From: Candidatus Latescibacterota bacterium
Lineage (GTDB): Bacteria; Latescibacterota; UBA2968; UBA8231
DNA length: 64,000 nt
NCBI GenBank assembly: GCA_965242865.1
Contig: CBDETK010000013.1
Location: forward strand, 4,384,001-4,448,000
Direction: 5' to 3'
Shown: piece by piece, positions 4,216-64,000 of the stretch
Layout of the letters: each line of letters begins with the position of its first letter
How positions within the stretch are numbered: the first letter of the stretch is position 1
The notes under the pieces: generated by a model
The model's database searches: none
Told to the model about the DNA's origin: nothing
The model's input: only the letters and a program-made list of their open reading frames with translations
Made by a program: the position numbers and the translations under genes

Positions 4216-4541
4216 CGTTTGTCGCGCCCGAGCTTGTAGAGCGCGACACTCCGTCCCGCTCGCTTCGCTTTGAGCCAGCGTTTGAACGAAGCCTCGCTCT
4301 CCCCGGATCGACGCCCCGCCAGCAGCCCTTCCACGCTAATGTCCTCGTCCAAATTTTCCCAGTGAATGTGGCGATTCGCAGCACACAGTTCCCAATTGTT
4401 GCGTTCGGCTGGCGTCGCGTGGACGAGCCGCGGATACCACGTTAGCGGAACGGAGATGATGCGACCGTCCGCGAGTTCGACCGTAAGCGTAGCTTCAGTG
4501 ACCGCGATGCTCTTTGCACCGGGCACTTCTAATTCCCTCAA
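4212..4541 (-). CDS. DUF2442-family protein (TA-associated), orphan, possibly N-truncated
   Basis: LADGRIISVPLTWYPRL...IHWENLDEDISVEGLL is the DUF2442 signature. The likely TTG start overlaps the stop of the upstream gene. No DUF4160 partner is present. Confidence 0.75.
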   Translation of the reverse strand: MRELEVPGAKSIAVTEATLTVELADGRIISVPLTWYPRLVHATPAERNNWELCAANRHIHWENLDEDISVEGLLAGRRSGESEASFKRWLKAKRAGRSVALYKLGRDKR

Positions 4542-7195
4542 TACGCCACGGCCACTGAGCGCATCCGGTGGGTCTGACGCGCATCGCCATTGACCGAGAG
4601 CGATACCAAGTACAGCCCCGGCGGCACCCGGTTGCCGTTGGCGTCGCGCCCATCCCAAGACAGGTGGTCGTAGTGCCCGCTCAGTTCGGCGCCTGCGTAG
4701 AGCGGCTTTACGAGGCGGCCAGACAGGTCGAAGACGCGCACTTGTACGGCGGTGGGGCGGGTCACAGCGAGGATGTCGTAGCCAATGGTCGCGGCGTCGT
4801 TGATGCCGTCGCCATTGGGGGTAAACGCGCTCGGCTCAATGGCAAAAGCGCCGAACAGGTCGCCTTGGTTGATGTCTGGGCTTAACACGGTGATGCCCGA
4901 ATCCGTGGGCAGGTCGGCTTCCCCTAAGAAGTCGGCGTTGCCTGCGGAGATGCGCTGGATGCTCCCGGCCTGCGACGAGAGCACGGCCTGCCCGCGGAAC
5001 AAGGTGCTATACAGCAACACGCGCCCGCGGAACTTGATTTTTAGCAGCATCTCGCCGCCATCGGCCGGGCGAGTGATTTGGGGGAAGCGCACGATCGCAT
5101 TGCGCTCGGTCACCGCTTGGATGACAAACGAGCCGCCGTCGGCCGATTCTACGGTATAGGGCAAGGCGTGTTGGACGCCGTCGGGCGTCTGCACGGCCGC
5201 TTGCCCATTGGCCGCGGTCACGATGTCGGCGTTCAGGGCCTGCTCGGCCACGAGCCGGTCGGGCAGCTCCCAGATCTCGATTTTGTCAATGCCCAGCACT
5301 TGGTTCGCGGTTAGCAGCTCAAAGGTGTCGAACCCCTTGACCCCGGCGAACTCCATTTTGGCGCGCACCGCATACGTGAAATCCACCGGCTCAAAGACTT
5401 CCACCTCCCGCGGGAAGATCTCGGCGACGAGCTCCTCGGCAATCGGCGGCAGCAGGTATTCAATGGACAGCTGTTCCAACGCCTTGGTCGCGTTGATTTC
5501 GCGGTTGAGAAAATCGACGGAAAACTGGATGTAGCGGCGCGGCCCGGGCGACAAAACCGGCGTACCGCCCTCCCATTCGCCGCCTTGGTGGGGCGACGAC
5601 CAAGGGCTCCAATTTTGCAGGTCCTCTTCGATTTCTCCCTTGCCCCACACCTGCGGGGGCACGGCTTCGAGGTCGGGCGCGAGGTCGAGATATTCGTCGC
5701 GTGCGAGCTGGTCGCTCGGGCGGTCTAGGGAGGAGGCAAGTTGGTCGTCTGACACGCGCTGGACATTGCCGCGCTTGTACAGCACCGGGGTCGGATCCGT
5801 GCCCGTGCGGGTGCGGACGATGATCTCGGCGAGGCCGCTGGTGCGCCCGAGCGGTCTGGCCGTTGGCTCCGCGCTTTGCTGGCGGCCCGGCCGCACGACC
5901 GCGCCGCAGTGGGTCTGGAAGCACTCATGCACGTTGGTGTAGCCTTCGGCGGTAAACCGCGCCGTGGGGGCGCAGTCGCCGTAGTCGCTGGGGATGGCGT
6001 CCGGGGCGGTGAACACAGCGGATTCGACTCGGCAGGTACTGGGCGCGGGGTCGGTTGGATTGCTGCGGGAGCGCAAATCCACGGTTCTTTCGCGCCAACT
6101 GATGTTTCCCCAAGTGGCCGGTGCGCCCAAGTCGTACACGTGGGAGATGTAGCGGCTCGTGCCGATAAAGCCCTCGCCAAAGACTTCAAATTCGTCGAGC
6201 TCGTAGGGAAAGGAGGACGTGGATTTGAGGCGCACAAAGCGCGCGGTCTGGGCCGGGTCAATCGCCAGTTCCACGACCGCCTCTTCGTTGCTAGCGGTCT
6301 TGAGCAGCATTGCAAAGTCGTCGAGCTGGGGCACGAGGCGGCCGGTGCCGTCTAGGACGAGGTTTTGCCCGTCGTGGGAGAGCAACTCAAACTGGCGAAT
6401 GAAATCCGTCTGAAAGGGGTATTGGGGAGCACTTTGCACGGTGTTGCGCGGATAGAAGCGGATGCGGTTGATGCCAATGGGGCTGCCGAGGTCGAGGACG
6501 ATAAAGGTGCCCAAGGCCCCAAAGGTGCCCTTGCGGGCGAACGCATCTTCGGCCCCGCCCGGCTCAATGAGCTCCAGCAGGGTCGCTTCGAGCAACGATG
6601 CGGGGATATCCTTGATGGCCGGTGCCGTAATGCCGCCGCCCCACCCGAGGGCGCGCCGGGCCACGTTCTCGCCGCGGACGACGTGGTCTGGGCTCAACAA
6701 GACCGGCAGGATGAGCGGGTCAACGCCGGCCGAGCGCACCGGCTCTAGGGCGGCCGCGATTTGTGCCACGGCCTCGTCGAGGGAAATGTCCGCGGCAAAA
6801 TCAATGCGAATCAGGGAGAGTCCCTCGCGCTGGGAAGGCGCCATCGCCGTGGCCCCGGGCAGGGACGCGAGCGCGGCGAGCAGTTTCTCTTCGGCTAAGG
6901 CCACTTCGCCAGCGAGCAATTCGGGCGGGGCTTGGATCAGGGTCTTGACCAGCACTTGGGGGCTTACCACCGCTAGATTCGACAAATCGATGATGTTGCC
7001 CGGTACATTGCCGACTTCGGTGAAGAACCGGCTGACCTTGTATTCGGCGGGGAGCGGCTGCACGGCTGCGCCAAAGGTCTGCCCGGCCCAAGAGACGTTG
7101 CCGTTGTTGCCCACCCGCAGGGTATCGAGCGCTCGCAGGTCGGTGCCGAGCACCAGCACACCCCAGAGCATGCCCAACGCGAGCCGATAAGCCAT
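4538..7195 (-). CDS. Secreted FlgD-Ig/CHU-type CTD protein, subtype A (copy 1), with two insertions
   Basis: Signal-like N-terminus from MAYRLALG (7195). Family motifs RIRFYPR, EFEVFGEGF, RTRTG, NWSPWS, SPGPRRY; CTD AFTPNGDGIND...DLSGR...WDGRD...VPPGLY...VAY. Confidence 0.8.
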   Translation of the reverse strand: MAYRLALGMLWGVLVLGTDLRALDTLRVGNNGNVSWAGQTFGAAVQPLPAEYKVSRFFTEVGNVPGNIIDLSNLAVVSPQVLVKTLIQAPPELLAGEVALAEEKLLAALASLPGATAMAPSQREGLSLIRIDFAADISLDEAVAQIAAALEPVRSAGVDPLILPVLLSPDHVVRGENVARRALGWGGGITAPAIKDIPASLLEATLLELIEPGGAEDAFARKGTFGALGTFIVLDLGSPIGINRIRFYPRNTVQSAPQYPFQTDFIRQFELLSHDGQNLVLDGTGRLVPQLDDFAMLLKTASNEEAVVELAIDPAQTARFVRLKSTSSFPYELDEFEVFGEGFIGTSRYISHVYDLGAPATWGNISWRERTVDLRSRSNPTDPAPSTCRVESAVFTAPDAIPSDYGDCAPTARFTAEGYTNVHECFQTHCGAVVRPGRQQSAEPTARPLGRTSGLAEIIVRTRTGTDPTPVLYKRGNVQRVSDDQLASSLDRPSDQLARDEYLDLAPDLEAVPPQVWGKGEIEEDLQNWSPWSSPHQGGEWEGGTPVLSPGPRRYIQFSVDFLNREINATKALEQLSIEYLLPPIAEELVAEIFPREVEVFEPVDFTYAVRAKMEFAGVKGFDTFELLTANQVLGIDKIEIWELPDRLVAEQALNADIVTAANGQAAVQTPDGVQHALPYTVESADGGSFVIQAVTERNAIVRFPQITRPADGGEMLLKIKFRGRVLLYSTLFRGQAVLSSQAGSIQRISAGNADFLGEADLPTDSGITVLSPDINQGDLFGAFAIEPSAFTPNGDGINDAATIGYDILAVTRPTAVQVRVFDLSGRLVKPLYAGAELSGHYDHLSWDGRDANGNRVPPGLYLVSLSVNGDARQTHRMRSVAVAY

Positions 7196-7571
7196 AAAAA
7201 CCTGCCTGTTGGAAATGGATGTGCTAATATAGAACCCAGCCCAAAGAGTGCATAGCGGGGTTTTTCGCAAAGCTATCTTGATAATACCCGAATCGGTGAA
7301 AATCGCCTTTCGCCCTCCTTTGACTGGCTGCGCGGCTCGTCGTGCTGGTTGAGCAGGTTGCCGGGCGGGGCCGGCCGAGATGCGTTTTTGACAAGCTCCC
7401 TCTTTGGCGTTCTCTTATACTCGTAGCCCTGAAGCGGAGCGTACTGTTCCGCCCGTCGAACGGACCGTGAAGATGAGAGTCGAAGATGCCGACGCGAACC
7501 GCTGATCCCAAGTGCTTGGACAAACCGACCGTCCCTCGGGGCCGGGCCGCCGAAATCGCAGAGGCCGTAGG

Positions 7572-8747
7572 ATGATTGGAAAGAGCGGTACGCTGCTGTT
7601 GGTCGTTGCCAGTTTGGCCGTTAGTGCCCTCGTCGTTGAAGGCTCTTTTTGGCTGTTCACTCGTTGGGCCGAGCCGGTCTATCCCGTGGTCCATTACAAG
7701 ACGGACGAGCGACATGTTAGTCTGGATTGCTACGACGACCACTTTGCGGGCACTCCCGACTTTGTATGTGGGGGGGTGGGGGAATTGACCTATGTAGGGA
7801 ATGCCAACATGGATCCCGCCCTCGCCGATCTATCGCCGCGGAATGCCAACATGGATCCCGCCCTCGCCGATCTATCGCCGCGCAAAGTGCCCAATGCCAT
7901 TGAGATACGCCTCAATGGAAGAGGCCTGCGCGAGCGGCCTATGGCTGCATTCGATGCACGGCGGGACAAAATCGTCGTGTTAGTCGGCGACTCCTTTTGC
8001 TTTGGTCAGGGGGTGCGGGTAGTGGACCGGTTTTCAAATGTCTTGGAAACCCGATTGAATCGGGAGCACCCAGCCGAGCGCTATCGCATCTTCAATACCT
8101 GTTATAAGGCCTGGGATGTCACGTGGAGTGCCAAAAGGATGTATGAATATGTCAAGTTCTTTGGTCGGGTCGATCTCGTCGTGTATTCGTTTGTCCTAAA
8201 CGATCCAATTCAGGATGGGCGTCTGCAGAAAAAGGAAAGAGAATTGTGGGGCCGACTGAAGTTGGAAGGTGAAGTTAACGATTTTATGCACTTGCGGACC
8301 AAGTCTGATGTACCGAGGCGACGGTCTGCCCGATTTTTGGCGGGATGGGATAGCTATACCCTGCGTTGGTTTGCCCTGCGTGTGCAGCGGCAGCAGACCG
8401 CCCGCGAGACCATTGAGTGGTATCGACAACTGTACACCAACAACTCCTATTGGCCCCAGACCCAAGAGTTGCTTCGCCAGATGAAGGATTACTGCGCAGC
8501 GAAGGGGATTGCATTCTCTTTGGTCGTTTGGCCTGTATTCCACCAACTCGACGCCTATCCCCTAACAGAGGTACACGAATTCATCGGGGCCGTGGCGCAG
8601 CAGGAGGGAATCCACTCCGTGGATCTGCTCCCGCTCTTCGCTGGCAAGGACGCCCAGCAGTACCGGGTTCACCCGACGGATTTTCATCCCAACAGTCGGG
8701 CGCATGCCGAAGTAGCGGCCTTTCTGTACGACGCTATTCCTTGGTAG
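7572..8747 (+). CDS. Membrane-anchored SGNH/GDSL hydrolase or O-acyltransferase-like protein (copy 1)
   Basis: N-terminal TM helix, block I GDSF, LND and block V DFHPN. Start placed at MIGKSG by comparison with copy 2. Confidence 0.8.
   Translation: MIGKSGTLLLVVASLAVSALVVEGSFWLFTRWAEPVYPVVHYKTDERHVSLDCYDDHFAGTPDFVCGGVGELTYVGNANMDPALADLSPRNANMDPALADLSPRKVPNAIEIRLNGRGLRERPMAAFDARRDKIVVLVGDSFCFGQGVRVVDRFSNVLETRLNREHPAERYRIFNTCYKAWDVTWSAKRMYEYVKFFGRVDLVVYSFVLNDPIQDGRLQKKERELWGRLKLEGEVNDFMHLRTKSDVPRRRSARFLAGWDSYTLRWFALRVQRQQTARETIEWYRQLYTNNSYWPQTQELLRQMKDYCAAKGIAFSLVVWPVFHQLDAYPLTEVHEFIGAVAQQEGIHSVDLLPLFAGKDAQQYRVHPTDFHPNSRAHAEVAAFLYDAIPW
7799..7882 (+). repeat. Exact 42-bp in-frame tandem duplication (NANMDPALADLSPR x2)
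   Basis: gaatgccaacatggatcccgccctcgccgatctatcgccgcg at 7799-7840 and 7841-7882; single copy in the paralogue. Confidence 0.95.
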
Positions 8748-8838
8748 TGAGGCGTCTAAAGGGGCAAGTTCGCGAAATGGGGTCTCACTTTTGAGAAAGG
8801 CCCCAGGTTGCCGCTCGGGTCAACGCCGTCGACCCGCT

Positions 8839-10183
8839 CGGGGCCGGTCGAGATGCGTTCTTGACGAGCCCTCTCTTTGGCGTTTTTTTATGCTCGTAGC
8901 CCTGAAGCGGAGCGTACTGTTCCGCCCGTCGAACGGACCGTGAAGATGAGAAACCACCCCCCATTGGCGATGCCGTTGCTGCTGCTCGCCGCGCCGGCCC
9001 CTCGTACGTCCCTCGGGGCCGGACCGCCGAAATCGCAGAGGCCGTAGGGTGATTAGAAAGAGCGGTACGCTGCTGTTGGTCGTTGCCAGTTTGGCCGTTA
9101 GTGCCCTCGTCGTTGAAGGCTCTTTTTGGCTGTTCGCTCGTTGGTCCGAGCCGATCTATCCCTTTATCAATTACATGACGGACGAGCCACGTGTTCGTCT
9201 GGATTGCTTCGACGACCACTTTGTGGGCACTCCCGACTTTGTCTGTGGGGGGGAATTGACCTATATGGATAATGGCTTCTTGAATCCCTCCCTCGCCGAT
9301 CTATCGCCGCGCAAAGTGCCCAATGCCATTGAGAATCGCCACAACGAAAAAAGACTGCGCGAGCGGCCCATGGCTGAGTTTGATGGGCGGCGGGACAAAA
9401 TCGTCGTGTTGGTTGGCGACTCCTTTTGCTATGGCATAGGGGTGCGGGTCGAGGATCGGTTTTCGAATGTCTTGGAAACCCGCTTGAATCGGGAGTACCC
9501 CGCCGAGCACTACCGGCTCTTCAATGGCTGTAAGCCGGGCTGGGGTATCGAGCATGTCTCCGGGAAAATGGAGCACTTTATCAATTACTTTGCTCGGGTT
9601 GACCGCGTCGTGTATTTGTTTGTCCTAAACGATCCAATTATGCGGGGGCATCTTTGGAAGTGGTTCAAAGAATCTAAAGGTATTACAGTTAAGAACGGGC
9701 GTCGTCCGAGGTTGGACGGTGAATTTAACAATCTTATGAGCGTGTTCTCCAGATCGAATGCAGCCCGATTTTTGGCGGGACGGGATAGCTATACCCTGCG
9801 TTGGTTTGCCGCTCGCTTACAGCGGCAGCAGACCGCCCACGAGACCATTGAGTGGTATCGACAACTCTACACCAACAACCCCCATTGGCCCCAGACCCGA
9901 GAGTTGCTTCGCGGGATGAAGGATTACTGCTCGGCGAGGGGAATTGCATTCTCTTTGGTCGTCTGGCCTCTATTCTATAAACTCGAAGCCTATCCCCTAA
10001 CAGAGATACACGAAATTATCGAGGTCGTAGCGCAGCAGGAGGGAATCCATTACGTGGATCTGCTCCCGCTCTTCGCTGGCAAGGACGCCCGGGATTATTG
10101 GATTCACCCGACGGATTTTCATCCCAACAGTCGGGCACACGCCGAAGCAGCGGCCTTTCTGTACGACGCCATTCCTTGGTAGT
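8839..10183 (+). repeat. Tandem duplication unit 2 (leader plus SGNH gene)
   Basis: Homologous to 7366-8748. Confidence 0.9.
9049..10182 (+). CDS. Membrane-anchored SGNH/GDSL hydrolase or O-acyltransferase-like protein (copy 2)
   Basis: GDSF...LND...DFHPN; paralogue of 7572-8747. Confidence 0.8.
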   Translation: MIRKSGTLLLVVASLAVSALVVEGSFWLFARWSEPIYPFINYMTDEPRVRLDCFDDHFVGTPDFVCGGELTYMDNGFLNPSLADLSPRKVPNAIENRHNEKRLRERPMAEFDGRRDKIVVLVGDSFCYGIGVRVEDRFSNVLETRLNREYPAEHYRLFNGCKPGWGIEHVSGKMEHFINYFARVDRVVYLFVLNDPIMRGHLWKWFKESKGITVKNGRRPRLDGEFNNLMSVFSRSNAARFLAGRDSYTLRWFAARLQRQQTAHETIEWYRQLYTNNPHWPQTRELLRGMKDYCSARGIAFSLVVWPLFYKLEAYPLTEIHEIIEVVAQQEGIHYVDLLPLFAGKDARDYWIHPTDFHPNSRAHAEAAAFLYDAIPW

Positions 10184-54672: not shown

Positions 54673-56742
54673 CTAGTACGCGACCCCGACGACGCGGCTT
54701 TGCTCGGCGTCGCCCGAATCACCAGCGACAAAGACGCGGGCCACGTACAGGCCCGGAGGAACGGCGCGACCGTGGTCGTCGCGGCCATCCCACGCTTTGT
54801 CTGTGTAGCGGCCATTGGCCTCTTCGCCGGCAAAGAGGACGCGCACGCGCCGGCCGCTCAAGTCGTAGAGCGCGACCTCAACCGGCCGCGGGGTGCTCAG
54901 TGCCAGCAGGTTGTAGAGGATGATCGCCTCGTCGTTGATGCCGTCGCCATTGGGGGTAAACGGATTGGGCGCAGCCTGCACTTGGCCCAACAGCTGCCCC
55001 TCGGCCAATACGGACGGGCTGAGTACCGTGGTGCCGGAAAAGGCGTCCTCGTCGCCCGCGCCCAAAAAGGCCACATTGCCCGGGTCGATCACTTGGGCGG
55101 CGCTCGGCTCGGTCGTGCTCCGCGCCGCGGCGGTGAAGTTGGTGCTGTACGTCAGCACGTTGGTCTGGAAGCGAATATGCACCTGCGTCTGGTCTTCGGT
55201 CACCGCGGGGAAGCGCACGGCAAAGCGGTCGTCGGCCACCTCGACAATGGCGAAGTCCCCACTCGCCTCGTCGAGATCGTGGTGCTCGGCCGCGATCGCG
55301 CCATTGGCATGGACGATCTGCACTGCGTCGATGCTCGACACGCGCGTCGGCGTGTTGATCTCAACGGTGTCGAAGCCGCGCAGGCCGGCCGTACCCATGG
55401 CGGCGCGCACGGCAAAGGTAAAGGACACTTCCTCAGCCACCGTTACCTCGCGGGGAAAGACTTCGCCGACCAAGGCGTCGGCAAACGGCGGCGTCAACAG
55501 CTCGAAGCTCAGCGCCCGGATCACCCGCGCCGCCTCTAGGTCGCTGCTGTTAAAAACGACCTCGAACTGCATGTAGCGGCGCGGGCTAGGCGAGACAATA
55601 GGCCCGTCCGCCGGATACGGCGTGCTGAAGGGGCTCCAATTGATCAGGTCGTCGGTCACGGCCCCGGCCATCCACTCGCGGCCGGCCGCATCGGTAACGG
55701 GCGTCTGGCCGGCCTTTTGGGGAAAGGTGCGGTACTCGGCTAGGCCCATCTCCTCCCCGGGGTTTTCCAGCGAAAAAGGGATGTCCTCGGCGTCTTGCTT
55801 GCCGCGCAGGCGGCGGGTGTACACAAAGGGCGAGGTGTCCGTGCCGGTGCGCGTGCGGATCTGCGCGCTGGAGAAGCGCGGGTCGCCCAACGCCTCTTCC
55901 ACCCAGCGCAGAGTGCCCCACACGGCCGGTTGCCCGGCGTCGAAAATGTTGGACACGTACTGGGCCCGCGACAAAAAGCCCTTGCCGAAAACCTCGATCT
56001 CGTCGATCTCAAAATCCACCGGCGAAGTCGCCCGCAAGCGCAGGTGCTGGACGTAGCGCGGGGGGTCGAGCGGCACGTCGATAACCGCAACTTGATTGTC
56101 GGTTTCGGCGATCAGGGGCTTCCAGATTGGGGTGTTCTCGCTGGTCAGGTTTAGGCCGTCGTTGGTAAACAGCTCGTAAGCCCGTAGGTAGTCGTTTTGG
56201 AAGGGGGTTGAGGGCGAGGCGACGACCGTGTTGCGCGGATAGATGCGGATCCGCTCCACCCCGAAGCGCGCTCCTAAATTGAGCAATACCAAGATGCCGA
56301 GGGCGTTCTGGCTCTTGCGCTCAAAGGCCAACAACTCGCCGCCCGGCTCGTCCGCGAGCAGCTCCTTTAACATCATCTCCAAGTCGAGCGGCTTGAACGT
56401 GCCACTGAAGTCGAAGACGTTGGGCGATTCAATGGTGCCGCCGCGGTCGATGGTGCCGACAGCCACGTTTTCTCCCTCGGCAATGCGCCGGGGCAGGATG
56501 CTGTGGGCAAAGTCCTCGCGGGTGAATTCGATTAAGTCGCCGGGCGCATTGCCCACCAGCAGGTTGTTGGGGTTCAAGGGCGAGCGGTGCTCGGCGTCTA
56601 TCGTAGAGACGGCCGCCTCGCCGTTGCCCTGCCAGTCCAAGTCGCCGCCCTCTCCAATCGAGACCGCGTCGAGGGCCAAACCTCCGCTCGACAGATAGAG
56701 CACCCAGGCGAAGCTAGCGGCCGCAGCACAATGCGCTTTCAT
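54673..56742 (-). CDS. Secreted FlgD-Ig/CHU-type CTD protein, subtype A (copy 2)
   Basis: GGAGG RBS before ATG 56742; RIRIYPRNTV, EIEVFGKGF, RTRTG, NWSPFS; CTD NPFTPNGDGIND...VAY. Confidence 0.85.
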   Translation of the reverse strand: MKAHCAAAASFAWVLYLSSGGLALDAVSIGEGGDLDWQGNGEAAVSTIDAEHRSPLNPNNLLVGNAPGDLIEFTREDFAHSILPRRIAEGENVAVGTIDRGGTIESPNVFDFSGTFKPLDLEMMLKELLADEPGGELLAFERKSQNALGILVLLNLGARFGVERIRIYPRNTVVASPSTPFQNDYLRAYELFTNDGLNLTSENTPIWKPLIAETDNQVAVIDVPLDPPRYVQHLRLRATSPVDFEIDEIEVFGKGFLSRAQYVSNIFDAGQPAVWGTLRWVEEALGDPRFSSAQIRTRTGTDTSPFVYTRRLRGKQDAEDIPFSLENPGEEMGLAEYRTFPQKAGQTPVTDAAGREWMAGAVTDDLINWSPFSTPYPADGPIVSPSPRRYMQFEVVFNSSDLEAARVIRALSFELLTPPFADALVGEVFPREVTVAEEVSFTFAVRAAMGTAGLRGFDTVEINTPTRVSSIDAVQIVHANGAIAAEHHDLDEASGDFAIVEVADDRFAVRFPAVTEDQTQVHIRFQTNVLTYSTNFTAAARSTTEPSAAQVIDPGNVAFLGAGDEDAFSGTTVLSPSVLAEGQLLGQVQAAPNPFTPNGDGINDEAIILYNLLALSTPRPVEVALYDLSGRRVRVLFAGEEANGRYTDKAWDGRDDHGRAVPPGLYVARVFVAGDSGDAEQSRVVGVAY

Positions 56743-56890
56743 TGCAATCCTCCGTGCGATTTGCGGCATAAAACAACCAAAGTACCGGCATAAATCAAGT
56801 TGAGCGCGGCTCGCCCGGCCCATGCCGAACTTGCTAAACGGCCCTCTCCTTTTCTTAATTACCAGCACTCAGTACTCAAGGAAGAGACCC

Positions 56891-59011
56891 ATGCAGCGCA
56901 TCATCGCTTTGTGTTTCCTGCTCGTCCTGTCCATGGCGCCGGCGCACGGCCGCGGGGAGTTTCGCGTTGGCGGGGCCGCTGGCAACCCTTGGTCCAGCCT
57001 GCTGTCGGAAGAAGGGGCCGGCGAGTACTGGCTCTTTGATGCCGAGGGCCAGCGCACGAGCACCGAACTCGTGGGCGTCACGCCCCACGGCGCGGCCGCC
57101 GACACCCTGATTGACTTTGCCGACGACGCCATTGGGCCGCGCTTCATCGACCCATTGGTCAATCTGACCCGCACCGATCCCAATTCCTCGTCCATCAAAA
57201 TTCCCCTGCCCTATATCGGCGGCGAGGCCCAGACCACCGATGGCTGCGGTGCGGTCGATAACCACACGCCCGTAGTCAAGAAGCAATTCGATGGCGATGT
57301 GACCACGGCGCACTTTCGTCGCTTCACCCCCGGTCAAGGCATCTTCAGCGGCGGCACCATCATCGCCGGGGTCACGGGCGAAGGCTGGAAAAACTCCGTG
57401 GTCATCGATTTTCGGGCGGCCGTACCGGTCAACCGCATTCGCTTCTTTCCGCGCCTCGGCCAAGAGGACGACCTATTGCTCATCAACGAACTCACCGAGC
57501 CGCGGCCCTCGTTGGCAACCTTTGGCGTAGATAGCTTTGCCAGCAACTTTCTCGCGTGGTACGAAATCCGCGTCGGCGACAACAATGTGCGCTTTGCCAA
57601 CAGCCCCTGCGACAAGGTCAGTGCCAACCTCTACGGCCTGCGCTGGGTGCGCAACCAAGACCCCGAGCTGACCGTGCTCGAATCCAACCGCGAAAACCTC
57701 GACCCCGTAGTAGAGCTGCGCTTTCCCACCGAGTCGATCCGCTGGATCACGGCCCAAGCCTTCCCCTTGCGCGACTGGGAGGTCGCTGAATTTGAGGTGT
57801 ACGGCGAGGGCTTTGTCGAGGAGACCGTGCTCGTCACCCAGATTCTCGACTTTGGCCAGCCGATCAACTGGGGCAAAATTCGCTGGGACGCCGCGGTGCC
57901 CGAGGGCACTCGCATTGAGGTCCGCACCCGCACCGGCAACACCCCGGACCCCAGCCTCTATTTCGCCGAAAACATCAACGGCGACATCCGCCCGATCACC
58001 TTGGCCGCGTACGAAAAGCTCGACCCGTCCGGCCGCCTGCCCACCGTGTACGACACCGACAACTGGAGCTTCTGGTCGCCGCCCTACGACTTTGCCGCGG
58101 GCTTGCGCGACAGCGCGGCACCGGACGAGGCGTGGCGCGACGGTACGCCGCTGTTGTCGCCCGGGCCGAGCCGCTACATCCAGCTCTCCTTTCGCCTGTT
58201 CGCCACCTTTACCACCGCGCCCCGCATCCGCTCCCTCGCGCTCCAATTCGGCAATGCACCGGCCGCCCGCGAAGTCCTCGGCGAGGTGTGGCCCATTGCC
58301 GTTGATTCCTTTGCGCCGCGGGAGTTTACGTACATCGTCCGGCCGGAGTTCAGTGCCGAAGACACCGGCTTTGACCGGCTGGAAATCCGCACGCACGCCC
58401 AAGTCCAATCCGTCGCGGGAGTTAGACGCGACGGCACCGCACTCGACTTGGACGACTTTGTCCCAAATATCCAAGCCGACCGCCTCGTGGTGTCCTTTCC
58501 CCGCCTGCAAGGCGAGGACGACAGCTTCAAGCAGCTCGAAGTGCGCTTTGTGGTGCCGGTCTTGCGCTTTGGCACCGAGTTTTCGGGCTGGGTTTTCGAC
58601 AGCGACGACCCCGATCAGATCAAACAGCAAGTCCGCCCGGGCAACGCCACCTTTCGCTTTTCGGGCGACGCGCTCGCGGTCAACACGCCCGTTGGCGGCC
58701 GGCTCCTCGTCAATGTGGCGGTGACTTCCAACCCACTTACGCCGAATGGCGACGGGCTGAACGAGACCGTGGAAATTGCCTACAAGCTGCGCGAGGTCAC
58801 GGCTGTTCGCCGGGTGCGGCTGGCGATCTACGACCTCGCCGGCCAGCTCGTGGTCGAGCTGCCGCCCATTGCCGCACGCAGCGGCGAGTTCGCCCATCGC
58901 TGGGACGGCCGCGACGCCGCTCGGCAACTCGTCCCCCCGGGCACCTATATCTGGCGGCTGCAATTAGAAGAGCAAGAAGAACGCGCCGGCATCCTCGCGG
59001 TTGCGTACTGA
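56891..59011 (+). CDS. Secreted FlgD-Ig/CHU-type CTD protein, subtype B (copy 2)
   Basis: Signal peptide; RIRFFPRLG, EFEVYGEGF, WGKIRW, NWSFWS; CTD NPLTPNGDGLNE...VAY. Confidence 0.85.
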   Translation: MQRIIALCFLLVLSMAPAHGRGEFRVGGAAGNPWSSLLSEEGAGEYWLFDAEGQRTSTELVGVTPHGAAADTLIDFADDAIGPRFIDPLVNLTRTDPNSSSIKIPLPYIGGEAQTTDGCGAVDNHTPVVKKQFDGDVTTAHFRRFTPGQGIFSGGTIIAGVTGEGWKNSVVIDFRAAVPVNRIRFFPRLGQEDDLLLINELTEPRPSLATFGVDSFASNFLAWYEIRVGDNNVRFANSPCDKVSANLYGLRWVRNQDPELTVLESNRENLDPVVELRFPTESIRWITAQAFPLRDWEVAEFEVYGEGFVEETVLVTQILDFGQPINWGKIRWDAAVPEGTRIEVRTRTGNTPDPSLYFAENINGDIRPITLAAYEKLDPSGRLPTVYDTDNWSFWSPPYDFAAGLRDSAAPDEAWRDGTPLLSPGPSRYIQLSFRLFATFTTAPRIRSLALQFGNAPAAREVLGEVWPIAVDSFAPREFTYIVRPEFSAEDTGFDRLEIRTHAQVQSVAGVRRDGTALDLDDFVPNIQADRLVVSFPRLQGEDDSFKQLEVRFVVPVLRFGTEFSGWVFDSDDPDQIKQQVRPGNATFRFSGDALAVNTPVGGRLLVNVAVTSNPLTPNGDGLNETVEIAYKLREVTAVRRVRLAIYDLAGQLVVELPPIAARSGEFAHRWDGRDAARQLVPPGTYIWRLQLEEQEERAGILAVAY

Positions 59012-59016
59012 TAACC

Positions 59017-59048
59017 GCGGCCGGGCTTGTTCCCTCGCCGCTTTTTTT
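59017..59048 (+). terminator. Possible intrinsic terminator
   Basis: Imperfect GC stem (GCGGC..GGG/CCC..GCCGC) followed by T7. Confidence 0.45.
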
Positions 59049-59089
59049 GTACCTTTGCTCTCAATTGAGCCATTAAGTAGTATCAAACT

Positions 59090-59111
59090 TGTGTAAACGC
59101 TTGTTTACACA
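59090..59111. promoter_or_regulatory. Perfect inverted repeat, putative operator
   Basis: TGTGTAAAC-GCTT-GTTTACACA, about 35 nt upstream of the ATG at 59147. Confidence 0.55.
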
Positions 59112-59146
59112 GCATTTATCACTTACTCCTAAGGAGGGTTTTCGCT

Positions 59147-60058
59147 ATGCAAGAGCGGACCAAATTCGTCTTAGCGGCCGCGCTGGTCATGGGCTTGTGC
59201 GGTACGTCCTTTGGCCACGCGCCTCCCGGCGAGCTTTACTTCGCCGTGCAATTCCCCGACAACCTCGTCCCCACGATGGACGGCGACCTGTCGGACTGGG
59301 ATGTCGTGCCGATTGATCCGTACACGATCCGCAACGACCGCCTCTACTCGCCGGTGGCCGATATTCAGCCGGTGGGCCGCGGCGAGATCGATGTCAGCGA
59401 CATCAACATCCGCCACCTCATCGGCTGGAACGACAGCGCGAACAAGCTCTACTACATGTCCGAGGTGTTCGACAATGTCCACAACCTAGACCGCGAAAAT
59501 CCCTCGGCCTTCTGGCAGGACGACGCTTGGGAAGTAGAGGTCAACCCGGACCACACGCCGACCGAGGAGCACAACCTCGAAGGCGAGCCGGCCAACAACT
59601 TCAGCTACAAGTGGGCCGTGCCGCCGGTGGAAGGGGCCTATCAGTTCTACCGTCCGGTCAGTGCGCTAGAGTGGCTGGTCGATGGCAGCGAATGGGTGGA
59701 CTTTGGCTGGGGGTACGACGGCGAGCAGTTCGGCGAGAGCACCTATTACTACGAGCTGGCCATCACGCCAATCACCTCGCTGCCCAACGACGCGTCGGCT
59801 ACTCCCGATCAGGCCGTGGTTTTCGATCTCGCGGAAGAGGAGATCATCCACACGTCTGTGACCGTGGGCGACTTCGACGAGCCATGCACCGAGTGTGCGC
59901 TCGAAAGCTATCAAGGCTTCTGGACCATGTCGCCGGAAATGTGCTGCACAGCCACCAACGACGTGGTGTTGGCCCCGCTAGAGCCTTCGATGGCGGCCGC
60001 AGCCGACGGGACCTCGGTCGAGGACGTGAGCTGGGGGCAGATCAAGGCCGCGTACTAA
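59147..60058 (+). CDS. Acidic secreted protein, CBM9/DOMON-like, with C-terminal SWGxIK motif
   Basis: AAGGAGG RBS; signal peptide; MDGDLSDW, WQDDAWEV; ends TSVEDVSWGQIKAAY. Confidence 0.7.
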   Translation: MQERTKFVLAAALVMGLCGTSFGHAPPGELYFAVQFPDNLVPTMDGDLSDWDVVPIDPYTIRNDRLYSPVADIQPVGRGEIDVSDINIRHLIGWNDSANKLYYMSEVFDNVHNLDRENPSAFWQDDAWEVEVNPDHTPTEEHNLEGEPANNFSYKWAVPPVEGAYQFYRPVSALEWLVDGSEWVDFGWGYDGEQFGESTYYYELAITPITSLPNDASATPDQAVVFDLAEEEIIHTSVTVGDFDEPCTECALESYQGFWTMSPEMCCTATNDVVLAPLEPSMAAAADGTSVEDVSWGQIKAAY

Positions 60059-60086
60059 AAGCGGCGACCGCTTCTTCAGGGTATGC

Positions 60087-60120
60087 AAACGCCCTGCTTC
60101 CTTCGGGGAGCAGGGCGTTT
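60087..60120. terminator. Bidirectional intrinsic terminator
   Basis: AAACGCCCTGCTTCC-TTCG-GGGAGCAGGGCGTTT hairpin between convergent genes. Confidence 0.85.
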
Positions 60121-60177
60121 GTTTGGATTCATCGCTAAAGGCATTTTTGGCCGACCTTCGAGCCAAGTTACGGCGGG

Positions 60178-60996
60178 CTACCCTTCCTCCCGCGCCACCT
60201 TCCCCTTGACGATCCGCTCGGCCAGCGGCGGCCACAAGGCGTGGACCACCGCCAGCAGCCGCAGCCGTCGAGGCACGTATAGCTGCGGCTGTCGCTTCTG
60301 CATCCCGCGCACAATGGCCTGCGCCGCAGCCTCCAAGCTCACGGCTTCGGCGCGGTGTTTGCGCGATGCAGCCCCCAACGCCTTCCCGTCCTTCCCCAGA
60401 GCGCGTTGCCGGAGATCGGTCCCCTTGAGCCAGTGCAAGAGCACGGTCATCACCCCCACCCCGCTAGCGGCCACCTCCATCCGCAGCGCGTCGCAAAACC
60501 CCTGCAGCGCGTGTTTGGACGCGGAATACCCACTGTGCAGCGGCACCCCCACCTGCCCCTGAATGGACGAAATGGCCACGAAAAGGCCCTTGCTTTTTTT
60601 AAGATGCGGCAGCGCTGGATGCACGCAGTACACAGCCCCCAAGTAATTCACCTCCATCAGGGTGCGGAACAACGCCACCTCCTCGACCGCGGCAAATTCG
60701 GTCCACATGCTGAGGCCGGCGTTGGCGACCAAGTAGTCTATGCGGCCAAAGCGTGCGATCGCGGCCGCGACCAGCCGCTGGCCGGCCTCGGCGCGGGCCA
60801 CATCCCCGACGACGGTTTGCACCTCGCTGCCCGCCTGCTCGCAGGCGCGGGCCACGGCCGCTAGCCGCTCGGCATTGCGCGCCAAAATGACCAGCCGCGC
60901 TTCCCGCTGGGCGCATTCCAACGCCAGCGTCGCGCCCAAGCCCGTAGAAGCCCCGGTGATAACGACGGTCTTATTGCTCAGGCTCGTCGGGCGCAC
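60178..60996 (-). CDS. Short-chain dehydrogenase/reductase, DHRS7/DHRS7B-like
   Basis: TGASTGLG, NAG, VAISSIQG, YSASKHA. Start uncertain; it overlaps the upstream gene end. Confidence 0.85.
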   Translation of the reverse strand: MRPTSLSNKTVVITGASTGLGATLALECAQREARLVILARNAERLAAVARACEQAGSEVQTVVGDVARAEAGQRLVAAAIARFGRIDYLVANAGLSMWTEFAAVEEVALFRTLMEVNYLGAVYCVHPALPHLKKSKGLFVAISSIQGQVGVPLHSGYSASKHALQGFCDALRMEVAASGVGVMTVLLHWLKGTDLRQRALGKDGKALGAASRKHRAEAVSLEAAAQAIVRGMQKRQPQLYVPRRLRLLAVVHALWPPLAERIVKGKVAREEG

Positions 60997-62812
60997 GGCC
61001 AAAAATCCCGTTTTGAATGCCAAAGATGTTCTGGGGATCCAGAGCCTGTTTGGTCTGGCGCAAGACCGCGATGCTGTTGTCGCTCTGGATGTGCCGGACG
61101 AAGCTCTGGCGAATTTTGCCAACCCCGTGGTGGTGGGACAGGGAGCCGCCGTGGTCCAAAATCGTCTGCCGCAGGGCGTGCTCAATGTCGTGATAGACCT
61201 CAATGGGGCGCGCCAATCCCCGCCCGGAAAACCCCATCGTAAAGTAGATGCACACCCCGGTGTGGTAGGTCTGCGTCACCCGGTACGACAGGTACGGCCG
61301 CCCGGCCACGCCGCGGGTGCTGCACTGCACGACGAGCTCGGCTTGCACGGCCTGCGTCACAGCGTGAATGCGGCTCCAAGGCACAGAGGTCTCAAAGGTC
61401 TCGCCCAAGAAATCGAACTGGTTCAAAAAGTCGCGGATATAGGCGATCCCAAAGGTCAGCATGTACCCGCGTCGGCCGTTGGTGGCCCCGGCGCTCCGGC
61501 CACCGTGGGCCTTGGCCAGCTTGAAGATCGTCCGCTTCTGGTGGGCCACCTCGGCGCGGCCCCCTTCCATGGCAATCGTACACGCCGCCATTTTTAGCGG
61601 GTCAAATCCCAATACCTTCAGTAGGGCGAACTTCTGCACCTTTTCCTTGAGCTGCTGTACGGGAGAGGGCGCGGCCTTGAGCGCCTGTCCAAAGCGGAAC
61701 TCTTGGTTGTTGACCAAGCGGATGCTCGCCGGCAAGGTCCCGGTCTGGCGCAACGCCTGCAAGTACTCCACGCCTTGGGCAAAGGACTTGAACACCAGCG
61801 AACCGTATTCGCGCACCTCTGGCAGGGGATGAATTTTGAGCACGGCCTTGGTGATGATGCCTAAGTTGCCCTCCGAGCCGAAAAGCAGCCCGCGCGGCTG
61901 GATGCCGGTCGAGTTGCGCGGGGTGGTGTGCAAGGTCTCCAGCGCACCGGTCGGCGTCACCAAGGTCGCTTCGAGCACGATGTCCTCGATGTTGCCGTAG
62001 CGGTTTTTCTTCATGCCGCTGGCGTTGGTCGCGATCCAGCCGCCCAAGGTCGAAAGCTCGATGCTGTCTGGGTCGTGGCCGGCCGTGTAGCCCCGGGCGG
62101 CGAGCGTGCGCTCCAGCTCCTTGCCCGAAATCCCCGCTTCAACGCAGGCTTGGAAGTTGTCCTCGTCGAGCTCGACGATCCGGTTCATGCGTCGCATGTC
62201 AACCGAGGCAAAGACGCGGTCGTCGTCGGCCGGCAGGGCCAACGCGCCGCTGACGTTGGTGCCGCCGCCGTAGGGCACGAGGCAAACGTCGCGCTCGGCC
62301 GCGAGGCGCACGATGACGCCCACCTGCTCTTCGCTTTCGGGGTACAGCACCAGATCGACCACGCGCTCCAAGTCGGAGCCGTAGAGCAGGCGATAGACCT
62401 CGTCGACGCTGAGCTGGCCGTGGCTGTGGATGAGGCGCTCGTCGTCGTCGAGCGAAACGCGCTCCGCGCCGAGCGCGGCCTGCCAAGCAGCGACGAGGCG
62501 GGCGTCGGCCCGCGAAGGCGGTACGCGATGATCCTCTTTTTCAATCGCTCGCTCGTCGGGATCGATCGGGACTTGAAGCATCTCCTCGACAAAGGGGATG
62601 AAATGGGGCATGGTGAAGCCGGCCAGCGGATAGCGCCGGCCCGTAACCCGCACGGTCTTAGGCCCGTCAAACTCAAAGCGGGTGTCCGCGTACCCCCATT
62701 TGTGCGGATGGCGTTCTCCGTCGGATACATCGTAGCACGCATCGGCCACGGCGTGGCGCACCACGGCCGCGGCGACTGCGACGACCGCGAGGACGACGGC
62801 GAATTCGATCAT
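60971..62812 (-). CDS. agpS: Alkyl-dihydroxyacetonephosphate synthase-like FAD oxidoreductase
   Basis: WGYADT, PYGGGTNVS, GHDPDSIELSTLGGW, ASGMKKNRYGNIED, GSEGNLG, RVTQTY, SLSHHHGVGK. Confidence 0.85.
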   Translation of the reverse strand: MIEFAVVLAVVAVAAAVVRHAVADACYDVSDGERHPHKWGYADTRFEFDGPKTVRVTGRRYPLAGFTMPHFIPFVEEMLQVPIDPDERAIEKEDHRVPPSRADARLVAAWQAALGAERVSLDDDERLIHSHGQLSVDEVYRLLYGSDLERVVDLVLYPESEEQVGVIVRLAAERDVCLVPYGGGTNVSGALALPADDDRVFASVDMRRMNRIVELDEDNFQACVEAGISGKELERTLAARGYTAGHDPDSIELSTLGGWIATNASGMKKNRYGNIEDIVLEATLVTPTGALETLHTTPRNSTGIQPRGLLFGSEGNLGIITKAVLKIHPLPEVREYGSLVFKSFAQGVEYLQALRQTGTLPASIRLVNNQEFRFGQALKAAPSPVQQLKEKVQKFALLKVLGFDPLKMAACTIAMEGGRAEVAHQKRTIFKLAKAHGGRSAGATNGRRGYMLTFGIAYIRDFLNQFDFLGETFETSVPWSRIHAVTQAVQAELVVQCSTRGVAGRPYLSYRVTQTYHTGVCIYFTMGFSGRGLARPIEVYHDIEHALRQTILDHGGSLSHHHGVGKIRQSFVRHIQSDNSIAVLRQTKQALDPQNIFGIQNGIFGRAPDEPEQ

Positions 62813-62845
62813 GGCTTCATCTCCTGGGAGGCAGGGGGCACCAAC

Positions 62846-63898
62846 CTACAGCCCCTCCTGCACATCCTTTTTCCGCACTTTCCAGATAAATGCGTCGTAG
62901 TAGTAGTGGATCAGGGCAAAGGAACTGAGCAGCGAATAGCTGAAGAGGTCGAAATTGGTGTTGAAGCCGACGAGGCCAAAGCCAAAGTCGCGCACCAAGC
63001 CCTCGCTCAGCGCGTGAAAGACGAGGGCGTAGGCCGCGCACAGCAGGATAAAGAACTTGACGCCCCGCTTGCTCGCCACGTAGCGCAGGAGGGCTGAATC
63101 GCCGCCCGTGCGCTCGACCTTGTGGCGGTTGTAGAAGTACACCATGACGATGTACTGAATCCCGTGCATGATCCGGTGCGCCACCGCAAACACGAGCAGA
63201 TAGGCCGTGGTAAAACTGGTGAAGTACCACAGGAAATAGCTCGACAGCAAAAAGGCGTACTTGAGGGGATTGAGGGCCAAGCCGCGCCGGGCGCAATAGG
63301 CGATGTGCCCCAAGTAAATCAGGCCGTAGCCAATGGCAAGGGTCCACGAAATTTGATGGACCCATTGCACGGCCTCCGCGCTGATCGGCAAGTGCCACTC
63401 GTGCAACATGCGCACCCAGACCGCGGAAAACAGCGGCGACACCACGAGCATATTGCCAAAGAAGATCCAATTGAAGGCCAAGTCGAACTTGGCGGTGGCC
63501 GGAGCGCCGGCCTTGGCCTTGAAGTCGTACACGCGCGCAAAGCCGTATTGCTGCATCAAGCTGTGCTGGTGATCCCACAAGGTCACGATCAACACCAAAC
63601 TCAACGGCGCCCACTGGATCAGGCCGTACGCAAAGGCGACCAACACCACCGGCCCGACGATGAACCGCTCCTTGAAGCGGGCGAACTCGGCCGGCGAGCC
63701 ATAGACGCGCAGCCACGTGACAAAGTGGTGGGGAATGGTCACCCACAGGGCAATGGCCGCTAGCGCAGCCCCCGGCAGGTAGTGCCCGGACACCAGCGCA
63801 AAGCAGACCGCGGCAAAGGGCAGGCTCACAAACCAGATGTAGTCCTGCCGGCGATCGACGATATAAGCAGGTTGGAGAACGATGGAATTAGTCGCCAT
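62846..63898 (-). CDS. Polytopic membrane protein with conserved His motifs (putative non-haem metal enzyme)
   Basis: About 9 TM; PHH, WDHQHSLMQ, HRIMHGIQY, HYYYDAFIW. Confidence 0.65.
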   Translation of the reverse strand: MATNSIVLQPAYIVDRRQDYIWFVSLPFAAVCFALVSGHYLPGAALAAIALWVTIPHHFVTWLRVYGSPAEFARFKERFIVGPVVLVAFAYGLIQWAPLSLVLIVTLWDHQHSLMQQYGFARVYDFKAKAGAPATAKFDLAFNWIFFGNMLVVSPLFSAVWVRMLHEWHLPISAEAVQWVHQISWTLAIGYGLIYLGHIAYCARRGLALNPLKYAFLLSSYFLWYFTSFTTAYLLVFAVAHRIMHGIQYIVMVYFYNRHKVERTGGDSALLRYVASKRGVKFFILLCAAYALVFHALSEGLVRDFGFGLVGFNTNFDLFSYSLLSSFALIHYYYDAFIWKVRKKDVQEGL

Positions 63899-63998
63899 GA
63901 GCAGTGGCCAACAGGGCTAACGCCACAGCGTCGGGGCTGAAGCGGATTTCGTGGGCGCGACGCTGGCGCACGGTCGCGGCCAGCTCCTGCACCGCCGC
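63888..63998 (-). CDS. 3' end of an upstream gene cut by the window edge
   Basis: Open frame ...AAVQELAATVRQRRAHEIRFSPDAVALALLATAHGD* overlapping the next start. Confidence 0.5.
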   Translation of the reverse strand, partial: AAVQELAATVRQRRAHEIRFSPDAVALALLATAHGD

Positions 63999-64000
63999 TT

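Follow-up and report, generated by a model that had tools for sequence, protein, structure and literature searches.

A probable two-gene module for consecutive steps of a peroxisome-type ether-lipid pathway in a Latescibacterota bacterium

In the window, that is, the whole 64,000-nucleotide stretch of DNA analysed here, we identified two overlapping genes that probably form a module for consecutive steps of a peroxisome-type (aerobic) ether-lipid pathway, with a neighbouring His-rich membrane protein as an apparent bystander. Judged by homology, the first gene encodes an alkyl-DHAP synthase (alkylglycerone-phosphate synthase, AGPS) and the second a classical SDR. Gene identity, synteny and co-occurrence lend good support to an alkyl ether-lipid pathway of the peroxisomal type. 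The features of the locus are as follows.

60178..60996, minus strand: classical SDR, candidate NADPH-dependent acyl/alkyl-DHAP reductase; about 272 aa, start at GTG 60996 or TTG 61002
60971..61002, minus strand: overlap of the AGPS and SDR genes; AGPS stop TAA at 60971-60973, SDR start at 60994-60996 or 61000-61002
60971..62812, minus strand: AGPS; 613 aa, hydrophobic N-terminal segment
62846..63898, minus strand: polytopic membrane protein of an undescribed family with conserved His, Asp and Gln; 350 aa
63888..64000, minus strand: 3' end of a PPIC-type PPIase gene (Pfam Rotamase_2 and Rotamase), cut by the window end

The three linked minus-strand genes described by the initial annotation are real (ORFs 62846-63898, 60971-62812 and 60178-61203), and since AGPS, the SDR and the membrane protein each have hundreds of full-length homologues, none of them is a chance ORF. 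The motifs listed for the FAD protein (ASGMKKNRYGNIED, RVTQTY and SLSHHHGVGK) and for the SDR (VAISSIQG and YSASKHA) are all found in the translations, together with the hydrophobic N-terminal stretch of the FAD protein, MIEFAVVLAVVAVAAAVV. The SDR gene does overlap the FAD gene as had been stated, but by about 26-32 nt and not by the 233 nt that the 341-aa ORF implies. The Rossmann fold of that ORF begins only around residue 78 and plausible starts lie at GTG 60996 and TTG 61002, so the ORF is over-extended upstream. The overlap suggests translational coupling. At the other end, the upper limit of 63998 had been placed too far, since it passes the start of the membrane-protein gene (63898) and enters the 3' end of the PPIase gene; the latter overlaps the membrane-protein gene start by 11 nt and in full encodes 525 aa (ORF L002, local 3889-5466, equivalent to window 63888-65465).

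On sequence evidence, the FAD protein is an AGPS. Pfam assigns it FAD_binding_4 (E = 3.8e-39) and FAD-oxidase_C (E = 5.5e-35), and a phmmer search of the PDB aligned its residues 38-601 with residues 95-656 of guinea-pig AGPS (4bby; E = 7e-146, 490 bits), at about 42% identity over 564 residues as counted on the match line, the N-terminal region included. Dictyostelium AGPS (2uuu) matched with E = 4e-86, whereas the next matches, glycolate oxidase and D-lactate dehydrogenase, reached at best E = 1.3e-26 over query residues 154-368 only. These scores bear out the AGPS assignment of the initial annotation, and in the comparison it had proposed with D-lactate/glycolate dehydrogenases they show that the protein is not GlcD-type. 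The active-site Arg419, Tyr578 and His615-617 loop of the guinea-pig enzyme align with the identical residues Arg365, Tyr523 and His560-562 of the query; it is exactly at the Tyr position that the variant chain 4bca differs from 4bby. The genome carries a single AGPS gene.

The order of the two genes is kept across phyla. We compared 80 AGPS loci at 54-92% identity, taken from several phyla with one locus for each species genome. In 59 of them an SDR orthologue follows AGPS on the same strand at a distance of -22 to +126 nt, and in 11 more it follows at 0.3-1.8 kb; eight loci, four of them from Chloroflexota, lack it although 900 nt or more of sequence are available beyond AGPS. The taxa with AGPS-SDR loci include Trueperaceae, Aquisalimonas, Puniceicoccaceae, Akkermansiaceae, Gemmatimonadota and Latescibacterota. 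In most loci of the window's genus, the SDR match in tblastn starts 22 nt before the AGPS match ends, and in five out of five distant genomes the gene after AGPS was the sole SDR match at E <= 1e-25. Within a sample of 151 genomes of the phylum, 103 of the 109 AGPS-positive genomes have an SDR orthologue and none of the 42 AGPS-negative ones does, a co-occurrence that is inflated because the genomes are related and not independent; three genomes (G089, G105 and G017) carry both genes though far apart. Six AGPS-positive genomes have no SDR orthologue which, with the loci where it is missing, indicates that the SDR is not obligatory. Taken as a whole, these distributions suggest that the SDR is functionally linked to AGPS, and the coupling of consecutive steps envisaged by the initial annotation is plausible.

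The SDR matches Pfam adh_short (E = 9e-47) and NCBIfam PRK06181 (287 bits, cut-off 215). Its translation contains TGASTGLG, NAG, ISSIQG and S...YSASK, and strand 2 is followed by an Arg; this set fits an NADP(H)-type classical SDR. The catalytic Ser-Tyr-Lys residues and TGxxxGxG are thus present, as motifs generic to classical SDRs, and the best solved relatives, 11-beta-HSD1 (7e-25) and clavulanate dehydrogenase (1e-24), favour no particular subfamily. No DHRS7B or Ayr1 chain occurs among the best 60 of its 565 PDB matches, and its best 120 homologues are bacterial wherever named. We regard this protein as the best candidate for a bacterial alkyl-DHAP reductase, a role whose substrate, cofactor and product we infer.

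A search beyond the window for the remaining partners, a FAR and a DHAP acyltransferase, yielded candidates both in this genome and in the operons of relatives. Directly upstream of AGPS-SDR, relatives carry a FAR-acyltransferase fusion (8 of 80 loci) or a FAR with a novel 648-aa HX4D protein (21 of 80), together 29 of the 80 loci. The genome under study encodes a 1403-aa FAR-acyl-CoA-ligase-acyltransferase fusion 4.3 Mb from AGPS, with the Pfam domain order NAD_binding_4, Sterile, AMP-binding, Acyltransferase and no ACP domain found by Pfam.

In the pathway we propose, this fusion, perhaps along with a second HX4D-type protein, would provide the substrates. Starting from 1-acyl-DHAP, AGPS would replace the acyl chain with a fatty alcohol, giving 1-O-alkyl-DHAP. 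The SDR would next reduce the keto group at C2, with NADPH as the probable cofactor, and yield 1-O-alkyl-sn-glycerol-3-phosphate, which could then enter ordinary phospholipid synthesis. Because PF10520 (PEDS1/CarF) was not found in this 93.6%-complete genome, the products would be expected to be alkyl (plasmanyl) lipids.

The SDR might instead serve another step, either as a fatty aldehyde reductase feeding the AGPS alcohol or as an acyl-DHAP reductase feeding phosphatidate synthesis. Its synteny and co-occurrence tie it to AGPS without naming a substrate, carbonyl compounds of many kinds are reduced by classical SDRs, the solved structures nearest to it are those of steroid and clavulanate reductases, and the animal DHRS7B enzyme reduces both acyl- and alkyl-DHAP according to the available excerpt of PMC7517302. 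We nonetheless consider both variants unlikely. FAR1-type enzymes are alcohol-forming, and the partner FARs have the same NAD_binding_4 and Sterile domains, which leaves no obvious need for a separate aldehyde reductase. Moreover, alkyl-DHAP is not known to have any fate besides reduction; an AGPS pathway without a keto-reductase would therefore be incomplete.

In our reading, the membrane protein lies outside the ether-lipid module and is a recent neighbour of it. It matches no Pfam or NCBIfam family, and 29 members of its family gave only scattered chance profile matches at E <= 5. The AlphaFold2 model (pLDDT 82, pTM 0.81) is almost wholly helical, with 14 helical segments, and Foldseek returned no fold match for it in the PDB (best E 0.16, TM < 0.3). 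Four His (H57, H112, H245 and H331) are invariant in 118 superfamily members, besides invariant Asp and Gln. The conserved His, Asp and Gln are suited to binding a metal; the model shows no desaturase fold. We considered and rejected the membrane di-iron desaturases/hydroxylases (FA_desaturase, FA_hydroxylase, PEDS1/CarF) in view of the four invariant His, the 14 helices and the missing profile match. The protein is probably a metal-dependent membrane enzyme. Its superfamily has 1,616 relatives, the majority of them fused to TPR repeats; lengths of 500-820 aa predominate among the best 150, and all eight TPR-length relatives tested have C-terminal TPR repeats. Of 80 membrane-protein loci, 38 contain a homologue of the PPIase ORF and 34 a TM/TPR-like protein of about 160 aa, nearly always on the downstream side of the gene. 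We would assign the membrane protein to this large TPR-associated superfamily and group it with the PPIase/TPR/FG-GAP envelope genes that lie upstream.

The initial annotation had instead seen one unit of three genes, in which the His-rich membrane protein may be a new ether-lipid desaturase/oxygenase; a PEDS1 substitute making vinyl ethers would be an example. A gap of 33 nt separates the membrane-protein gene from AGPS on the same strand, and nothing resembling a promoter or terminator was found in it beyond what chance would give, so the two genes may be co-transcribed and share a function within the genus. The desaturase slot is open, the conserved residues would suit a metal site, and AGPS lies downstream in 27 of the 80 membrane-protein loci. 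However, this arrangement occurs only in the window's genus, and we find the three-gene unit improbable. No AGPS lies within 6 kb in any of 45 loci whose membrane protein is at most 69% identical, nor in eight at 72-82% identity. Across the 151 genomes sampled, only one family has the orthologue (40 genomes), and three genomes carry it but no AGPS; it is absent from all 49 genomes of two other families (f2 and f3), of which 47 have AGPS and 46 also the SDR. At E <= 1e-30, AGPS is missing from four of five distant carriers (a member of Longimicrobiales, two Planctomycetota and a gammaproteobacterium). The gene trio found no support, its AGPS adjacency being limited to one genus and two AGPS-bearing families lacking the membrane protein. 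The proposed desaturase/oxygenase role found no backing either, given the lack of a family or fold match and of co-occurrence with AGPS; the count of invariant His, the TPR-fused relatives and the common PPIase and TM/TPR-like neighbours also speak against it. We regard it as a long shot that the membrane protein founds an undescribed superfamily of His/Asp metal-dependent polytopic membrane enzymes (more than 1,600 members, mostly TPR-fused) and was recruited next to AGPS in this genus to act on alkyl ether lipids, e.g. to make vinyl ethers where no PEDS1 was found, and that, separately, the AGPS-coupled SDR family is the long-missing bacterial alkyl-DHAP reductase.

That the FAD protein is a D-2-hydroxyacid (GlcD/LDHD-like) dehydrogenase, in a gene pair unrelated to ether lipids, is highly improbable: such enzymes share its two-domain FAD architecture and GlcD is its top NCBIfam match, far under the cut-off (169 vs 568 bits), but GlcD/LDHD-type chains score at most 97 bits, over the FAD domain only, the HHH loop and aligned Tyr and Arg of AGPS are conserved, relatives have FAR and acyltransferase genes in the AGPS operon, and no Fe-S or kinase partner is present.

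The two-gene AGPS-SDR module can be set against several known systems. Eukaryotic AGPS (EC 2.5.1.26; 4bby, 2uuu) shares with the window protein both FAD domains and the AGPS-specific N-terminal region. The eukaryotic enzyme carries a peroxisomal targeting presequence at its N-terminus, whereas the window AGPS is bacterial, has a hydrophobic N-terminal segment and shares its operon with the reductase presumed to act next. DHRS7B/PexRAP, the mammalian acyl/alkyl-DHAP reductase (EC 1.1.1.101), and yeast Ayr1 are, like the window SDR, classical SDRs with TGxxxGxG and Ser/Tyr/Lys, and DHRS7B/PexRAP catalyses, directly after AGPS, the reaction proposed here (PMC7517302, in excerpt). The same excerpt gives DHRS7B an N-terminal membrane anchor; the window SDR has none, with about 10 residues preceding the glycine motif from either start. 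PEDS1/CarF and the di-iron desaturases/hydroxylases resemble the membrane protein as integral membrane proteins with conserved His, but di-iron desaturases have eight or nine His in three boxes against its four invariant ones, and SCD-type desaturases combine a four-helix membrane domain, nine His and a cytosolic cap (PMC9131029, in excerpt), as opposed to the 14 helical segments of our model.

The 1403-aa fusion recalls ElbD (acyl-CoA ligase, ACP, reductase, acyltransferase), a protein from the elb cluster of M. xanthus, in that it too fuses a ligase, a reductase and an acyltransferase; it differs in its order (FAR, AMP-binding, acyltransferase) and in that Pfam found no ACP. A preprint excerpt (10.64898/2026.06.23.733905) reports 'standalone elbD hits' together with agps in Latescibacterota MAGs. 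The available text of PMC13012113 does not contain 'DHRS7B', nor does that of the sponge preprint contain 'SDR', and neither text mentions an SDR partner.

Bacterial AGPS operons are already known in Myxococcus. According to the excerpt of PMC9131029, the M. xanthus operon comprises MXAN_1676 (AGPS), MXAN_1675 (a FAR-GNPAT fusion) and MXAN_1674 (NAD-dependent epimerase/dehydratase family), and AGPS accounts for a minor share of the ether lipids. MXAN_1676 shares about 42% identity with human AGPS, and strains deleted for it contain less alkyl ether lipid (excerpts of PMC9131029 and PMC13012113). The partner in the window is a classical SDR (adh_short) right after AGPS, while that of M. xanthus is an extended SDR (PMC9131029, in excerpt); the order is FAR-AT, AGPS, SDR in the window's relatives, as against AGPS, FAR-GNPAT, epimerase family in M. 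xanthus, and in the genome under study FAR and AT are unlinked to AGPS and fused to an acyl-CoA ligase. Nevertheless, the M. xanthus operon also joins AGPS to other dedicated steps of the pathway, and a FAR-AT beside AGPS is found in the window's relatives as well.

The initial annotation proposed an ether-lipid operon of three genes, encoding an alkyl-DHAP synthase (AGPS), a reductase resembling DHRS7B (PexRAP, the mammalian acyl/alkyl-DHAP reductase) and a membrane desaturase/oxygenase. The ORF translations confirmed three linked minus-strand genes, together with all quoted motifs and the hydrophobic N-terminus of the FAD protein:

62846-63898, minus strand: His-rich membrane protein, 350 aa
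60971-62812, minus strand: FAD protein (AGPS), 613 aa, with a hydrophobic N-terminal stretch
60178-61203, minus strand: SDR ORF as first called, over-extended upstream

The Rossmann fold of the SDR starts at about ORF residue 78 in the Pfam domain scan, and the sequence offers a GTG at 60996 and a TTG at 61002 as start candidates, which puts the actual overlap with the AGPS stop codon (60971-60973) at about 26-32 nt. A gap of 33 nt separates the membrane gene from the AGPS start. The first 11 nt of the membrane gene coincide with the end of a 525-aa PPIase gene, which continues beyond the window; TPR and FG-GAP/ASPIC proteins are encoded farther upstream of the PPIase on the same strand. A scan of 59900-64000 returned no promoter-like site and five terminator-like sites, with 4.2 expected. 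The genome itself is 93.6% complete, with 6.8% contamination.

On the other side of the SDR gene, window positions 54673-60058 encode two divergent proteins of about 730 aa, whose C-terminal CHU_C/FlgD_ig domains resemble type IX secretion signals. A gene for a 303-aa protein that weakly matches CBM9 converges on the SDR gene. DNA runs labelled as sponge metagenomes contain 45-59% of the sampled words of 60100-63998. Contigs from three RNA libraries, X17 and X18 of one study and X19 of another, match parts of the AGPS and membrane genes at 90-95% likeness, and the X19 contig also covers one piece of the SDR; DNA can be present in such libraries, and the contigs show neither transcription nor strand.

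At the sequence level, the identification of the FAD protein as an AGPS is certain. It combines the Pfam domains FAD_binding_4 and FAD-oxidase_C, and its best match among all PDB chains is guinea-pig AGPS (E 7e-146, 490 bits, residues 38-601 against 95-656), with the Dictyostelium enzyme also matching at E 4e-86. Counted from the printed match line, about 236 of 564 positions (~42%) are identical to the guinea-pig protein, including those aligned to Arg419, Tyr578 and His615-617, which we take to be its catalytic residues under this numbering. A grouping with lactate or glycolate dehydrogenases was not found: in the PDB search, glycolate oxidase and D-lactate dehydrogenases score no better than E ~1e-26, over the FAD domain only, and the NCBIfam GlcD model scores 169 bits against a cut-off of 568. 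No second AGPS is encoded in the genome, which does have two GlcD-type paralogues, 30-34% identical to this protein. Horizontal transfer of AGPS from an animal host was considered and dropped, since ~42% identity to guinea pig equals the value between M. xanthus and human, and since 106 of 112 sampled Latescibacterota genomes of three families in the same class carry AGPS. AGPS matches with one or two in-frame stops (TGA, TAG or TAA) occur in eight genomes of the phylum sample (G089, G098, G049, G081, G096, G070, G072 and G123).

The SDR is a classical one (Pfam adh_short, E 9e-47; NCBIfam PRK06181, 287 bits with a cut-off of 215). Its best solved relatives, 11-beta-HSD1 (7e-25) and clavulanate dehydrogenase (1e-24), are near-equal, so the PDB gives no single-subfamily placement; its best 120 homologues are bacterial and named 'SDR family oxidoreductase' or unnamed. 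We found that its coupling to AGPS is real and widespread. Across 80 AGPS loci, each from the genome of a different species and with AGPS at 54-92% identity, an SDR orthologue lies on the same strand at -22 to +126 nt downstream of AGPS in 59 and at 0.3-1.8 kb in another 11; it is missing from eight despite at least 900 nt of downstream room, and two have no room to be scored. The records bearing the pair are labelled Latescibacterota, Gemmatimonadota, Trueperaceae, Aquisalimonas, Puniceicoccaceae and Akkermansiaceae, and in all five such genomes tested the gene that follows AGPS is the sole SDR match at E<=1e-25 (coordinates cross-checked). Furthermore, among 151 sampled genomes of the phylum, the SDR orthologue occurs in 103 of the 109 with AGPS and in none of the 42 without it, which we regard as supporting evidence and not as a statistic because related genomes are not independent. 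Three genomes (G089, G105 and G017) carry both genes even though these are unlinked. The proposed linkage of AGPS to a putative next-step reductase gene is supported by synteny and co-occurrence alike, and the coupling is best explained as synthesis, then reduction, of alkyl-DHAP, with the SDR as candidate reductase.

Four of the eight loci lacking the SDR are from Chloroflexota by record title (L150, L156, L158 and L161; AGPS at 55-57% identity). They show no linked SDR in 1.7-5 kb downstream and no fatty acyl-CoA reductase (FAR) or acyltransferase upstream of AGPS within reach. These genomes may have another means of carrying out the reduction.

Candidates for a FAR and a DHAP acyltransferase were found beyond the window, both in its own genome (G000, contig C13) and in the operons of relatives:

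G000:C13:88911-93122 (4912-9123 of the fetched locus L168), minus strand: 1403-aa fusion with Pfam domains NAD_binding_4, Sterile, AMP-binding and Acyltransferase
L136 2967-4913 (fetched locus of a relative): 648-aa protein P0241 between FAR and AGPS, with a C-terminal H-x4-D motif read by eye

By its domains, the 1403-aa protein is a predicted fatty acyl-CoA reductase, acyl-CoA ligase and GNPAT/AGPAT-type acyltransferase in one chain, encoded 4.3 Mb from the AGPS-SDR pair. The 3' end of its gene overlaps an Lgt-like gene, followed by an OYE flavoprotein and another SDR, and a YegS/DAGK-type lipid kinase adjoins it divergently; L136 likewise has a kinase of this type, located downstream of its AGPS-SDR pair (8481-9389). 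In eight loci, a FAR-acyltransferase fusion of ~800-845 aa stands directly upstream of AGPS-SDR (confirmed by Pfam for L152), and in 21 of the 80 AGPS loci a 534-aa FAR is followed by the 648-aa protein. The H-x4-D motif is typical of glycerolipid acyltransferases. The 648-aa protein matches no Pfam family and, by phmmer, nothing meaningful in the PDB; its N-terminal ~420 aa form a domain of unknown function. Based on motif and position, it may represent a new DHAP acyltransferase. Its copy in the window's genome is solitary and 45% identical (G000:C13:2862649-2864553), beside TonB-receptor and PepSY_TM genes. PF10520 (PEDS1/CarF) has no match in this genome, nor in the control genomes, and the predicted products are accordingly alkyl rather than alkenyl lipids.

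The third gene does not belong to a conserved trio. Its orthologue is found in 40 of the 151 genomes, all of one family, three of them lacking AGPS, and in none of the 49 genomes of the two other families, 47 of which carry AGPS and 46 the SDR too. The membrane gene adjoins AGPS in the window's genus only; in other genera the two lie 80-300 kb apart or on different contigs. Likewise, AGPS is downstream in 27 of 80 loci of the membrane-protein family, with none among the 45 at <=69% identity or the eight at 72-82%, and four of five distant carriers gave no AGPS at E<=1e-30.

Nor did we find support for an ether-lipid desaturase/oxygenase. No Pfam or NCBIfam family matched, relaxing the threshold to E<=5 for 29 members yielded no family either, and an Atlas search returned unnamed clusters only. 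The AlphaFold2 model (pLDDT 82, pTM 0.81) is almost wholly helical, with 14 helical segments, and Foldseek found no PDB fold match (best E 0.16, TM <0.3), with no solved membrane desaturase or hydroxylase among the matches. The suggested His metal site fared better: in 118 superfamily members, H57, H112, H245, H331, D139, D335, R64, R122, Q116 and Q248 show complete or almost complete conservation, and the four His, two Asp and two Gln would fit a metal site, not the eight or nine His of di-iron desaturases.

A profile search recovered 1,616 relatives at E<=1e-3. The best 150 are mostly 500-820 aa with this domain N-terminal; among ten long relatives scanned, all eight of 537-824 aa have TPR repeats at the C-terminus, and the other two, of ~510 aa, match no Pfam family. 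The protein defines a large undescribed superfamily whose domain mostly precedes TPR repeats. Two longer paralogues lie in its own genome:

G000:C13:769594-770601: longer paralogue of the membrane protein
G000:C13:2236617-2237642: longer paralogue of the membrane protein

A ~160-aa TM/TPR-like protein, the usual follower of stand-alone members, is encoded in 34 of the 80 membrane-protein loci, nearly always just downstream, and a PPIase homologue in 38. Because its AGPS link is shallow, its relatives are mostly fused to TPR repeats and its His are too few for a di-iron desaturase, we read the membrane protein as an envelope enzyme associated with TPR proteins and as a recent neighbour of AGPS. 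Its annotation as an ether-lipid desaturase should be avoided.

Altogether, three related families of one Latescibacterota class, with DNA present in sequencing runs labelled sponge metagenome, likely produce non-isoprenoid alkylglycerol lipids, which serve geochemists as biomarkers. An AGPS-linked classical SDR, present in several phyla and in AGPS-bearing genomes only, offers a specific candidate for the keto-reduction that is simple to assay. Moreover, AGPS-SDR and the FAR-acyltransferase genes make compact cassettes of three or four genes, whose expression could yield alkyl lipids.

The general concept has already been published for Myxococcus, to our knowledge the only case in which the genetics of aerobic bacterial ether-lipid synthesis has been worked out, and one in which the keto-reduction enzyme is unassigned. 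The literature passages on acyl/alkyl-DHAP reductases covered here describe no bacterial enzyme. In the available part of its description, DHRS7B is an SDR that bears a TGxxxGxG motif and is anchored through its N-terminus (PMC7517302), whereas the window SDR lacks this membrane anchor. Matches to agps and elbD in Latescibacterota MAGs from sponges are reported in a 2026 preprint, the available part of which makes no mention of an SDR partner (10.64898/2026.06.23.733905). In M. xanthus, as far as the available parts of the two papers go, the operon consists of MXAN_1676 (AGPS), MXAN_1675 (a FAR-GNPAT fusion) and MXAN_1674 (NAD-dependent epimerase family); MXAN_1676 is ~42% identical to human AGPS, and its loss slightly lowers alkyl ether lipids (PMC9131029; PMC13012113).
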